The notes beneath the pieces are model-generated. The model was not told the DNA's origin. It did not search any database and was given only the letters and a program-made list of their open reading frames with translations. A stretch of 54,063 nucleotides of DNA, from the IMG/VR virus record IMGVR_UViG_2861048470_000002; one strand, written 5' to 3'. The translations under genes were made by a program, and so were the position numbers. Within the stretch, counting starts at the first letter, position 1. The number at the start of each line of letters is the position of its first letter. Source of the stretch: a virus (lineage: Duplodnaviria > Heunggongvirae > Uroviricota > Caudoviricetes). This document shows positions 7,091 to 36,065 of the stretch, piece after piece.

Positions 7091-7459
7091 TCAGGCGGCT
7101 TTGATAGTCATATCATCTGAATCAAATATTCCTGATGTATCGATATCGGTAATTCTTATTCCTTCGCTACCATCCATTGGAGGCCATCCTTCCTGACCAT
7201 TTCCATCATTCCAGTCGAACTCACACACAACACCATATGCATTTAAGTCGCTTGAAATTGCTATAAGCAGAGCATGTTGCGCCAGCATGATTAATACAGC
7301 ATTTAATACAGAGCCGTGTTTATTGAGTCGGTATTCAGAGTCTGACCAGAAATTATTAATCTGGTGAAGTTTTTCCTCTGTCATTACGTCATGGTCGATT
7401 TCAATTTCTATTGATGCTTTCCAGTCGTAATCAATGATATATTTTTTGATGTTTGACAT
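7091..7459 (-). CDS. ea10: Lambda Ea10, 122 aa
   Basis: MSNIKKYIIDYDWKASIEIEIDHDVMTEEKLHQINNFWSDSEYRLNKHG matches lambda Ea10 from memory. Confidence 0.9.
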   Translation of the reverse strand: MSNIKKYIIDYDWKASIEIEIDHDVMTEEKLHQINNFWSDSEYRLNKHGSVLNAVLIMLAQHALLIAISSDLNAYGVVCEFDWNDGNGQEGWPPMDGSEGIRITDIDTSGIFDSDDMTIKAA

Positions 7460-7479
7460 CTATTCATATCCTCACAGAT

Positions 7480-7505
7480 AAAAAATCGCCCTCACATTGG
7501 AGGGC
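7480..7505 (-). terminator. Rho-independent terminator (GCCCTC ACATT GAGGGC then U-run on the minus strand) upstream of ea10
   Basis: Perfect 6-bp GC stem followed by a T-run in the leftward transcript direction. Confidence 0.5.
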
Positions 7506-7719
7506 AAAGAAGATTTCCAATAATCAGAACAAGTCGGCTCCTGTTTAGTTACGAGCGACATTGCTCAGTGTATTCACTCGTTGGAATGAATACACAGTGC
7601 AGTGTTTATTAGTATGCCTGTCTTTTAACCACATCAGGCTCGGTGGTTCTCGTGTACCCCTACAGCGAGAAATCGGATAAACTCTATTCACCCCTACAGA
7701 GAGCAAAAGAGAAACGCCG

Positions 7720-8301
7720 ATGAACAACTCATGGTGGCAGGAACTAATGCATTTTTTCCTGCAAGGAATGACACTTAAACAGTTGATTCATATGCTAATC
7801 ATCCTGATCATATTGATTATTGTTATGCCTGTAAGCGTAAAAGAATGGATAAACCTGCATAATCCAGAAATCCTTCCTCATTACTGGATGTATTACATCC
7901 TGTTGTTTTGCGTTAGCTATGTGCTTAACGGCGTTGTTAATTCCGCTTATCACGCTGTGACTGAAAGAATTGAGATATTCGCTGCTCAGAAGCGCAAATC
8001 TAAAGAAGAGAAATACGTGCAAGATTTGTTTGATTCGTTAACTCTTGGAGAAAGAGCGTATTTGGCATTCGCTGTAGCCGCTAATAACCAGCTAAAGACA
8101 GAAAAGGGAAGCCCTGAAGCAATCTCATTGCTCGAAAAAGGGCTTCTTATTCGGGTACCTTCTGCTACTGGATATCCTGAAATCGACCGTTTTGTTATCC
8201 CGGAACGCTATAGAAATGAGTGCTACATTAGGTTTGCTGGGAAGAAAGACAGTCTTATGGATGAACTTATCGCTCAGGATAAGCATGGCAAAAACAAGTA
8301 A
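7720..8301 (+). CDS. Membrane protein, possibly SieB-like superinfection exclusion, 193 aa
   Basis: N-terminal hydrophobic segments (LIHMLIILIILIIVMPV, YILLFCVSYVLNGVV); sits where sieB lies in lambdoid pL operons but on the opposite strand to N; family assignment from memory only. Confidence 0.45.
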   Translation: MNNSWWQELMHFFLQGMTLKQLIHMLIILIILIIVMPVSVKEWINLHNPEILPHYWMYYILLFCVSYVLNGVVNSAYHAVTERIEIFAAQKRKSKEEKYVQDLFDSLTLGERAYLAFAVAANNQLKTEKGSPEAISLLEKGLLIRVPSATGYPEIDRFVIPERYRNECYIRFAGKKDSLMDELIAQDKHGKNK

Positions 8302-8317
8302 TTAGCAAATTAATTTA

Positions 8318-8590
8318 TCATCTCGCCGTCAGTTGTTTTGATTTCCGGTAGCCTGCCGCGTAAATGGCTACGTTTGGCAGGCAAATACTTCCACTGCATT
8401 CATCTGCCTTCTTGCAGCGAAGGCTTCCGAGTGATGCTGCTTTGTCTGCTCTGACGCAACCAGAGAGCTTTAGCGCAATTTTTCGCGCCAGTCGCTGTTC
8501 TTGCATTGCCTGCTCACGTTGAGCCTGTCTGCGTGCTCTGCGGCGATTTCTGGCGTTATTGTCAGCCAGATATGTAATGACTACTGCCAT
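8318..8590 (-). CDS. N: N-like transcription antiterminator, 90 aa
   Basis: Arginine-rich motif NARNRRRARRQAQREQ near the N-terminus; C-terminus LPNVAIYAAGYRKSKQLTAR resembles P22 gp24; first gene downstream of pL/nutL. Confidence 0.8.
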   Translation of the reverse strand: MAVVITYLADNNARNRRRARRQAQREQAMQEQRLARKIALKLSGCVRADKAASLGSLRCKKADECSGSICLPNVAIYAAGYRKSKQLTAR

Positions 8591-8697
8591 GTTGACCTCC
8601 GATGATTAACTTTGGCGGTGACGCGCCGGGTGCTTATCTTCCGGTTGCCGTCGTGCAGCTGCACTTCACGTCACCCCAAAGCCAACTACTCTTTGGT

Positions 8698-8738
8698 TCC
8701 CGCATTTCGGCGGGACAATCCCATCAATGTTAAAGAGC
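8698..8738 (-). promoter_or_regulatory. nutL: nutL: boxA (GCTCTTTAACA) and boxB hairpin (TCCCGC CGAAAT GCGGGA)
   Basis: boxA consensus followed by a hairpin identical to the one at nutR (9849-9872); between pL and N. Confidence 0.75.
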
Positions 8739-8774
8739 CTGCCAATCTGTTCCGTTTGGCTACCAGCGTCCTGC

Positions 8775-8870
8775 CGATGACTTAAATTTAAGATTTCTTT
8801 AACTATTGGTCAAGAGTGTTTTTGAAGAAAACTTAAATTTTGTTGCGAAGCTTAAGTTTTGCTTTGATTT
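8775..8870 (-). promoter_or_regulatory. pL/oL region with P22-type operator half-sites
   Basis: ATTTAAGATTTCTTTAAC and related TTAAG...CTTAA palindromes; TTGACC -35-like hexamer on the minus strand. Confidence 0.55.
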
Positions 8871-8881
8871 TTAAAGGAAAG

Positions 8882-8902
8882 AAAAAAAGGGGCGAATGCC
8901 CC
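8882..8902 (-). terminator. Hairpin (GGGGC GAAT GCCCC) with U-run at the c2 stop
   Basis: GC stem followed by a T7 run on the minus strand. Confidence 0.5.
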
Positions 8903-9553
8903 TTATGGAAGGTTTGCTATTTTTGCATCGACAACTACACCGATGATTTTGCAGTTCCCGTTGATCTCAATCATCGGATATTGTGGGTTAAGTGGTTTTA
9001 GAAACCTTCTGCCAGCATCAATAACTAACTTCTTGAAAGTTGCCTCGTTTTCTCCTTCGAGCTTTGCCACTACCAGCTTCCCATTACGAGGTTCTACTTC
9101 AGGATCGACTAGTATTATCATCCCTTCCGGGATGCTAAGACCGGCTGGAGCCGTCATCGAATCACCCTTTACGTCCAGCCAAAACGAATCTTCTGAACAA
9201 TCTACGGTTGTATCGTACCAGTTATCTATTGCACGCTTATGATATGGCTCTACAGCTTCCATCCAACATCCTGCGCTTACCCAACTAATTAGAGGATACG
9301 AACCTCTTGGATCATGCCTGCTGTGATAGGCAATGTTTGAAAGACTATCTTCTCCTTTCAACAAGTAATCAGGGGAGCACTGTAAAGCCTTGGCTAAAGC
9401 CAATAGGTTTTCGCCATTGGGCTCAGTTTCAGAACGCTCCCATTGGGAAATAGCAACATTAGACACGCCAACCATCTTGCCGAGGGCAGCCTGCCTAATC
9501 TTAAGTTCTTTTCTGCGAGCGCGAATACGCTCACCCATCAGTTGTGTATTCAT
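8903..9553 (-). CDS. c2: P22 C2-type repressor (LexA/S24-like C-terminal domain), 216 aa
   Basis: MNTQLMGERIRARRKELKIRQAALGKMVGVSNVAISQWERSETEPNGENLLALAKALQCSPDYLL with near-identity to P22 C2 from memory. Confidence 0.93.
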   Translation of the reverse strand: MNTQLMGERIRARRKELKIRQAALGKMVGVSNVAISQWERSETEPNGENLLALAKALQCSPDYLLKGEDSLSNIAYHSRHDPRGSYPLISWVSAGCWMEAVEPYHKRAIDNWYDTTVDCSEDSFWLDVKGDSMTAPAGLSIPEGMIILVDPEVEPRNGKLVVAKLEGENEATFKKLVIDAGRRFLKPLNPQYPMIEINGNCKIIGVVVDAKIANLP

Positions 9554-9927: not shown

Positions 9928-12397
<2,470 letters not shown>

Positions 12398-12546
12398 ATT
12401 GACAGAATCACCGATTCTCAACTTAGCGAGATTACAAAGTTACCTGTCAAACGGTGCAATGAAGCCAAGTTAGAACTCGTCAGAATGAATATTATCAAGC
12501 AGCAAGGCGGCATGTTTGGACCAAATAAAAACATCTCAGAATGGTG

Positions 12547-31064: not shown

Positions 31065-34745
<3,681 letters not shown>

Positions 34746-34765
<20 letters not shown>

Positions 34766-36065
34766 TCTCCCGCATATTGCCAGCATGGCCTTTAATGAGC
34801 CGCTGATGCTTGAACCCGCCTATGCGCGGGTTTTCTTTTGTGCGCTTGCAGGCCAGCTTGGGATCAGCCGCCTGACGGATGCGGTGTCCGGCGACAGCCT
34901 GACTGCCCAGGAGGCACTCGCGACGCTGGCATTATCCGGTGATGATGACGGACCACGACAGGCCCGCAGTTATCAGGTCATGAACGGCATCGCCGTGCTG
35001 CCGGTGTCCGGCACGCTGGTCAGCCGGACGCGGGCGCTGCAGCCGTACTCGGGGATGACCGGTTACAACGGCATTATCGCCCGTCTGCAACAGGCTGCCA
35101 GCGACCCGATGGTGGACGGCATTCTGCTCGATATGGACACGCCAGGCGGAATGGTGGCGGGGGCATTTGACTGCGCTGACATCATCGCCCGTGTGCGAGA
35201 CATAAAACCGGTATGGGCGCTGGCCAACGACATGAACTGCAGTGCAGGTCAGCTGCTTGCCAGTGCCGCCTCCCGGCGTCTGGTCACGCAGACCGCCCGG
35301 ACAGGCTCCATCGGCGTCATGATGGCTCACAGTAATTACGGTGCTGCCCTGGAGAAACAGGGTGTGGAAATCACGCTGATTTACAGCGGCAGCCATAAGG
35401 TGGATGGCAATCCCTACAGCCATCTTCCGGATGACGTCCGGGAGACACTGCAGTCCCGGATGGACGCAACCCGCCAGATGTTTGCGCAGAAGGTGTCGGC
35501 ATATACCGGCCTGTCTGTGCAGGCTGTGCTGGATACCGAGGCTGCAGTGTACAGCGGTCAGGAGGCCATTGATGCCGGACTGGCTGATGAACTTGTTAAC
35601 AGCACCGATGCGATCACCGTCATGCGTGATGCACTGGATGCGCGTAAATCCCGTCTCTCAGGAGGGCGAATGACCAAAGAGACTCAATCAACAACTGTTT
35701 CAGCCACTGCTTCGCAGACTGACGTTACTGACGTGGTGCCAGCGACGGAGGGCGAAAACGCCAGCGCGGCGCAGCCGGACGTGAACGCGCAGATCACCGC
35801 TGCGGTTGCGGCAGAAAACAGCCGCATTATGGGGATCCTCAACTGTGAGGAGGCTCACGGACGCGAAGAACAGGCCCGCGTGCTGGCAGAAACCCCCGGT
35901 ATGACCGTGGAAACGGCCCGCCGCATTCTGGCAGCTGCACCACAGAGTGCACAGGCGCGCAGTGACACTGCGCTGGATCGTCTGATGCAGGGGGCACCGG
36001 CACCGCTGGCTACAGGTAACCCGGCATCTGATGCCGTTAACGATTTGCTGAACACACCAGTGTAA
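34746..36065 (+). CDS. C: Capsid protease/scaffold C (with in-frame Nu3), 439 aa, GTG start
   Basis: VTAELRNLPHIASMAFNEPLMLEPAYARVFFCALAGQLGIS matches lambda C; 1320 nt as in lambda; the in-frame ATG at 34599 is upstream, inside B. Confidence 0.85.

Follow-up and report, generated by a model that had tools for sequence, protein, structure and literature searches.

A lambdoid sieB gene with putative P22-type control and coupled direct repeats in its upstream region

Work on phages P22 and lambda in 1993 established the superinfection exclusion gene sieB, its placement on the strand opposite to N, and the promoter and antisense RNA of the gene. In P22, these elements reportedly make up a sieB-esc-sas module (Ranade & Poteete 1993, J Bacteriol 175:4712 and Genes Dev 7:1498). 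In that work, the transcription start of P22 sieB is said to have been mapped by RNase protection, and a double substitution in the −10 hexamer reportedly killed the promoter, PsieB. Two other cis-antisense controls of temperate phages, P22 sar/ant and lambda OOP/cII, resemble the sieB system in that a short structured RNA from the opposite strand lies over a translation start. In contrast to both, the antisense RNA of sieB decides which of two in-frame products is made from a single gene, and it would add a second anti-target motif that lies outside the antisense overlap. According to reviews, sas is a 105-nt cis-antisense RNA that blocks the synthesis of SieB and allows that of Esc (PMC12197685, PMC7067206 and PMC10461980); the sequence of the P22 sas read cluster is given in Table 2 of a small-RNA sequencing study from 2026 (PMC13397905).

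The DNA analyzed here, referred to as the window, is the whole 54,063-nt stretch of the Caudoviricetes record IMGVR_UViG_2861048470_000002. An earlier annotation made from the letters and their translated reading frames (hereafter, the sequence-only reading) had placed a membrane protein at the position where sieB-type exclusion genes lie. The ORF is present as described (7720–8301, plus strand, 193 aa), and its position is borne out, the product being SieB itself. Bioinformatics analysis revealed that the 193-aa product matches the Pfam family SieB (PF14163; E-value, 1.1 × 10−25; 90 bits against a cutoff of 26 bits), with residues 24–164 aligned to profile positions 2–144 of 147, and that PHROG 1301 is covered over the full length of the protein (1–193 of 193; E-value, 6 × 10−124). 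The comparison with the lambda and P22 proteins that had been proposed in the sequence-only reading showed clear SieB homology, with amino acid identities of 27% and 84%, respectively. At the DNA level, the segment from ea10 through the repeats and sieB is 99.9% identical to that of VT1-Sakai (Sp15 of E. coli O157:H7 Sakai), and BAB19611 is the annotated sieB of that phage. The sieB region is matched in 1013 of the 5426 complete E. coli genomes, at least 80% of the region being present in 576 of these, and SieB is the annotation of the region in E. coli genomes among the matches listed. The hydrophobicity profile shows one strong helix at about residues 16–45 (Kyte-Doolittle 19-residue means above 1.6 for windows starting at residues 12–29, with a peak of 3.0) and a weaker second stretch at residues 55–73. 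The ORF is the known prophage gene sieB in its usual place and orientation.

The stop codon of sieB is separated by 17 bp from a gene for a 90-aa N antiterminator (8318–8590, minus strand; Pfam PF25694, N_peptide; E-value, 9 × 10−16), with which it is convergent, tail-to-tail. The opposite-strand placement had been taken as a departure from sieB-type genes, a view that does not hold, as lambda and P22 show the identical arrangement: in lambda (lambdap48), sieB at 34482–35036 (plus strand) meets N at 35037–35438 (minus strand), and in P22, sieB at 11509–12087 (plus strand) faces gene 24, the N homologue, at 12108–12410 (minus strand). The expression independent of pL that this orientation had been said to imply agrees with the established PsieB promoter, and is already known. 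In general, the locus, its orientation and its regulation are known, and hundreds of E. coli genomes carry annotated copies that hardly differ from the one in the window.

Upstream of N, a candidate pL (TTGACC-17-TAAATT, about 8813→8785, minus strand) and a candidate nutL with boxA GCTCTTTAACA and boxB CCCGCCGAAATGCGGG (about 8738→8699, minus strand) were read from the sequence by lambdoid analogy; by the same analogy, pL would be the source of leftward transcripts running antisense through sieB. Both pL and nutL are of a type different from that of VT1-Sakai. The match to VT1-Sakai breaks off within N or just beyond it: from about 8302 rightward, the window diverges over a portion of N, over nutL and pL, and over the repressor (216 aa, HTH and S24 peptidase domains, 8903–9553), which belongs to a different immunity type. 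Since the 5′ part of N, nutL, pL and the repressor (8302–9553) are of a different type, a mosaic junction is placed at the sieB/N boundary. The N gene and immunity region differ in type from those of P22 as well. On the left side of sieB (7460–7615), the window, like VT1-Sakai, lacks ral and orf28, the two genes found between ea10 and sieB in lambda, P22, HK140 and ev207. The replacement segment carries a 22-nt inverted repeat (7558–7579/7584–7605, 82% complementary).

The pair of repeats noted upstream of sieB is real, although its coordinates required correction. Instead of 7647–7661 and 7688–7702, spaced 41 bp apart, the exact copies of ACCCCTACAG(C/A)GAG are found at 7656–7669 (copy 1, ACCCCTACAGCGAG) and 7690–7703 (copy 2, ACCCCTACAGAGAG), both read on the plus strand and 34 bp apart from start to start. 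They begin 64 and 30 bp ahead of the ATG, in keeping with the distance of about 30–70 bp given originally. With up to two mismatches allowed, the pattern has three matches in the 54-kb window, where 0.39 would be expected, and a count of three was reached in 0 of 100 shuffled sequences; the third match (at 31835, with two mismatches) is unrelated, and the window contains no further good copy of the motif. The two copies remain alike over 17 nt, at 88% identity. Similarity of the copies outside the 14–17-mer is non-significant (p = 0.35), and a tandem duplication of the whole leader with the start codon was rejected on this ground.

Both repeats coincide with promoter elements. A promoter corresponding to PsieB is recognized at 7653–7683 on the plus strand, with a −35 hexamer TGTACC (7653–7658), a 19-nt spacer and a −10 hexamer TAAACT (7678–7683), and the start of transcription is predicted at about 7690. 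These 31 nt are identical to the feature "P sieB" of the P22-pbi record (AF527608; locus L006, 1239–1269), and by this identity the window is predicted to have a promoter of sieB's own. A generic sigma-70 scan missed PsieB because its −35 hexamer is poor, and returned matches at 7768–7796 (plus strand) and 7835–7807 (minus strand), which have the score level of shuffled sequence. Copy 1 overlaps the −35 hexamer and the spacer of PsieB, and copy 2 starts 7 nt past the −10 hexamer, where the sieB mRNA is predicted to begin. The sequence-only reading had regarded the repeats as a regulator binding site or a promoter element: the coincidence with PsieB and with the predicted start speaks for the latter, and a binding regulator is unsupported. 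Within sieB, an in-frame internal start at Met25 (7792–8301, plus strand), with the ATG and the adjacent codons kept from P22, corresponds to the putative start of Esc. The P22-pbi annotation places the esc CDS 72 nt inside sieB (L006, 1379–1885 and 1307–1885, respectively). The truncated product inhibits SieB in P22.

Alignment of the P22 sas sequence with the minus strand of the window (7724→7615) revealed identity at 107 of 111 positions of sas nt 1–111. This sas equivalent (7615–7724, minus strand) covers the start codon and the Shine-Dalgarno sequence of sieB, the mRNA leader, the promoter region and a conserved hairpin, and both repeats fall inside it, where they read CUC(U/G)CUGUAGGGGU. 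A sas-type antisense RNA of the window phage is thus putative, by homology. Identity to P22 and lambda ends at 7615, just past the hairpin, and the weak U-tract that follows the hairpin of P22 sas (ACAAUCUUU) is replaced in the window. The first terminator-like site downstream on the minus strand, an 8-bp stem followed by TTTTTTAT, is located at 7507→7486, just upstream of ea10; therefore, the 3′ end of sas may differ in the window phage. No convincing sigma-70 promoter for sas was found on the minus strand, and sas may be processed from pL transcripts instead of having its own promoter. The Rfam collection has no sas model, and a scan of positions 7300–8900 at E ≤ 1 gave three chance-level matches only. 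The known prophage small RNAs AgvB, AsxR, Pas and STnc100 were considered and set aside, as they are encoded near pR′/Q and not at the sieB locus.

Copy 1 forms the loop and the 3′ arm of a hairpin, designated hairpin B (7647–7671), in which TTCTCG (7647–7652) pairs with CGAGAA (7666–7671). In relatives, its stem is changed in a compensated manner (TTCCTG/CAGGAA, TTCCTT/AAGGAA, TTTCTT/AAGAAA and ATTACT/AGTAAT). As a minus-strand RNA, hairpin B closes a GGGG loop with an inner UGUA/UACA stem. Since the sieB mRNA is predicted to start at copy 2, hairpin B would exist only in the leftward RNA. Among the 73 two-repeat cassettes described below, it folds better as minus-strand RNA in 71 (−8.65 versus −4.72 kcal/mol), an advantage that is partly compositional because the plus strand is rich in C and A. 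Folding of the whole sas region is no better than that of shuffled sequence (z = −0.77), and the minimum-energy fold leaves no more of the hairpin-B anti-motif unpaired than its GGGG. The duplex predicted for the 5′ end of the sieB mRNA with the hairpin-B segment of sas has an energy of −23.3 kcal/mol, compared with −10.6 ± 2.9 kcal/mol for shuffles. A hairpin around copy 2 (CTCT/AGAG) was rejected: it is compensated in lambda and HK446, and inconsistent in Klebsiella-type and Hafnia sequences.

The left edge of the conserved block is an invariant 31-nt element (7616–7646) consisting of a GCCTG-N14-CAGGC hairpin, two free positions and GGTGG. Scans located it in 119 stretches of contigs from one genome per species, and at least 120 viral contigs also contain it; it is essentially invariant from Escherichia to Xenorhabdus, Proteus and Arsenophonus, while its surroundings vary. 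When CCAC and GGTGG were left free in the scan, they proved invariant in nearly all of the 120 sequences, the remainder being a few single-base variants and two unrelated matches. A minus-strand H-type pseudoknot (CCAC...GUGG across GCCUG...CAGGC) is geometrically possible, with all variable positions located in loops; it was rejected as showing no covariation, only invariance and a few uncompensated singletons. By-eye likenesses to LexA, CRP, IHF, DnaA-box, boxA and ops sites were also discarded, as none fits the positions that are invariant across relatives.

Comparison with relatives demonstrated that lambda, P22 and the window hardly differ over the block that spans 7615 to about 7700, despite the distant allele of the lambda protein. 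In lambda, the stretch from the hairpin through copy 1 to the −10 hexamer is identical and the core of copy 2, ACCCCTACAG, lies at the same 34-bp spacing, and it is within copy 2 that the homology is lost, the leader and coding region belonging to a different allele. Both repeats are kept in eight relatives collected by BLAST, and in a Klebsiella phage both copies read CCCCAAC. The sequence-only reading had counted as evidence against itself a clear SieB homology with the same strand arrangement, which is what was found, and an absence of the repeats from relatives, in which they are present.

For a wider comparison, one genome per species was scanned with a pattern taken from the hairpin upstream of copy 1, the repeats being excluded from the pattern, and viral contigs were scanned with a relaxed pattern. 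Together, the two scans yielded 73 distinct two-repeat cassettes, a set preselected by requiring that the two copies agree at 9 or more of 10 positions. A TAnnnT hexamer is found between the repeats in 72 of these, ending 5–8 nt before copy 2, and the hexamer 17 bp upstream of it (TTCCCC, TACCCC or TTTCCA) is the 5′ start of copy 1. At least eight variants of the motif are present (CCCCTACAG, CCCCTACAA, CCCCAACAAC, CCCCCACAA, CCCCAGCAA, CCCCAGTRAT, CCCCAATGCA, TTCCACAGTCAA and TCCCACAGTCAA), and for each of them the variant-defining bases are the same in both copies. Even single-base differences within a variant group are matched in both copies, as in CCCCTACAG versus CCCCTACAA and TTCCACAG versus TCCCACAG. 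Within the three largest variant groups of this set, preselected for similar repeats, variability is lowest in the columns of the two repeat blocks, whereas stems, spacer and −10 hexamer are variable. The copies have diverged in about 10 Xenorhabdus-type cassettes. The variants follow neither the downstream (cargo) gene, nor the N type, the immunity type or the host genus; therefore, the simplest matching partner of each copy is the other copy. A lambda-like contig (L103, positions 433–746) carries two substitutions in copy 1 (AACCATACAG) together with several amino acid changes in SieB, and may represent either a natural or a sequencing-error variant with mismatched copies.

The cassette upstream of sieB (7616–7703 in the window) is not restricted to this gene. 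In Enterobacterales prophages (loci L007–L250), it precedes at least 28 unrelated cargo families, most of which are PHROGs of unknown function. Two architectures were distinguished. In the two-repeat form, the start codon lies 66–74 nt after GGTGG. In the single-hairpin form, this distance is 35–43 nt, GGTGG is followed by TATnnT as an extended −10, TTNACC in the hairpin loop corresponds to the −35, and a covarying hairpin with a C/A-rich loop (CTCTCACACAG) is found just ahead of the Shine-Dalgarno sequence. One cargo family can follow either architecture. Downstream of the cassette, an N homologue is present at some loci, and a cI-type repressor, directly adjoining and convergent, at many others.

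Taken together, the locus is very probably an ordinary lambdoid sieB module under P22-type control, with the repeats built into the control region. By homology with P22, sieB would be transcribed rightward from the weak PsieB in a lysogen, convergent with the repressed pL-N operon and independent of it, and the transcript would yield the membrane protein SieB, which would abort the lytic growth of superinfecting lambdoid phages, as well as Esc from the internal Met25. During lytic growth, leftward transcription would produce an antisense RNA of the sas type, about 110 nt long and able to pair with the first 35 nt or so of the sieB mRNA (7724–7690), including the Shine-Dalgarno sequence and the AUG. 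This pairing would shut off SieB and leave the translation of Esc intact, and the phage would escape its own exclusion. The antisense RNA would also carry two anti-motifs (CUGUAGGGG), of which that of hairpin B would be presented in a loop.

It is conceivable, at somewhat less than an even chance in our judgment, that the two copies are kept identical because the hairpin-B anti-motif of sas captures the sieB mRNA at its C-rich, single-stranded 5′ end; the captured mRNA could possibly come from another phage that shares only the cassette. Several observations weigh against such a capture. With the whole mRNA leader already complementary to sas, it is not evident what a second anti-motif would be needed for. 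The exposed part of this anti-motif is limited to GGGG in the minimum-energy fold, and the folding of sas does not stand out from that of shuffled sequence. Furthermore, the strand advantage of hairpin B is partly a matter of base composition, the low variability of the repeats comes from a set preselected for similar copies, and the Xenorhabdus-type cassettes have copies that diverged.

The identity of the copies may also have no function of its own. Copy 2 would then be a C/A-rich leader acting as an enhancer or a 5′ stabilizer, copy 1 would be no more than a −35 hexamer and hairpin loop, and their likeness would stem from a short duplication with occasional recombination. Leaders of the C/A-rich type are known to enhance translation, reportedly through work on GcvB targets (Sharma et al. 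2007). In line with this explanation, the single-hairpin relatives have a comparable C/A-rich loop before the Shine-Dalgarno sequence, unequal recombination would interconvert the two architectures (with start-codon distances of about 70 and 38 nt), and diverged copies are tolerated in some lineages. Nevertheless, we consider it rather unlikely, given that at least eight variants carry matching changes in both copies, down to single bases within a variant group, and that both blocks remain the least variable columns while the −10 hexamer, stems and spacer vary. Gene conversion over 10–14 bp is inefficient, and a recent duplication would extend the likeness past the 14–17-mer, which is not seen.

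Still less probable, and in our opinion improbable altogether, is that the repeats are two operators for a DNA-binding regulator of PsieB, one over the −35 hexamer and the other over the transcription start. Such positions are typical of a promoter-occluding repressor, both copies are strongly conserved, and the poor −35 hexamer would suit an activator-dependent promoter. However, these are direct repeats 32–34 bp apart and without dyad symmetry, the 54-kb window lacks another good copy of the motif, and the compensatory stem changes around copy 1 point to RNA. The same repeats accompany different immunity regions and N types in lambda, P22, VT1-Sakai and the window; therefore, cI, Cro and N cannot be their reader. 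The variants are also spread over host genera and unrelated cargo, so that no host or neighbouring protein co-varies with them. The remaining alternative, a different membrane protein with a new function that merely occupies the sieB position, has nothing in its favour except the low identity to lambda SieB and is ruled out by the Pfam match far over the cutoff, the full-length match to PHROG 1301, the 84% identity to the genetically defined P22 SieB, and the promoter, Esc start and antisense region shared with P22.

Returning to the sieB module with repeats in its control region, a broader and more tentative proposal, which we regard as possible although doubtful, concerns the role of the 90-nt block. 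Composed of the invariant hairpin with GGTGG, the covarying hairpin, the promoter and the motif at the mRNA 5′ end, it might act as a portable, cargo-independent control cassette at an N/cI-proximal insertion hotspot, by which the cargo would be switched on in the lysogen and silenced by antisense RNA in lytic growth. The repeat would then be a specificity seed: a phage in lytic growth would make an antisense RNA with two anti-motifs, by which the cargo mRNA of any resident prophage with the same variant could be neutralized, and the variants would have arisen in an arms race of exclusion and escape. If the cassette is indeed such a lysogen-on/lytic-off unit, it would offer a sequence handle for candidate prophage-expressed exclusion or defence genes, and it predicts RNA-level cross-talk between co-infecting phages. 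No description of the coupled repeats or of the cargo-independent cassette was found in the literature searched, the coverage of which was incomplete. The coupled changes of the repeats in at least eight variants, and the shared cassette before unrelated small prophage genes from Escherichia to Xenorhabdus, are possibly worth specialist attention.

In addition to the loci in Enterobacterales, about 20 lambda-identical matches were obtained in short or low-coverage contigs assigned to Nocardioides, Enterococcus, Paenibacillus, Vibrio, Shewanella, Pseudomonas and other taxa (including L036, L039, L040, L043, L045, L051, L052, L054, L059, L068, L074, L078, L083, L087, L088 and L090). These look like contamination of public assemblies with lambda DNA. 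As for the rest of the window, a lambda O-like replication gene (within 10196–11559) is cut short near 10470–10510 and is followed by an ORF for a 340-aa IS21-family istA-like transposase (10537–11559). This is probably an IS insertion in the replication gene of the prophage, which may be defective.
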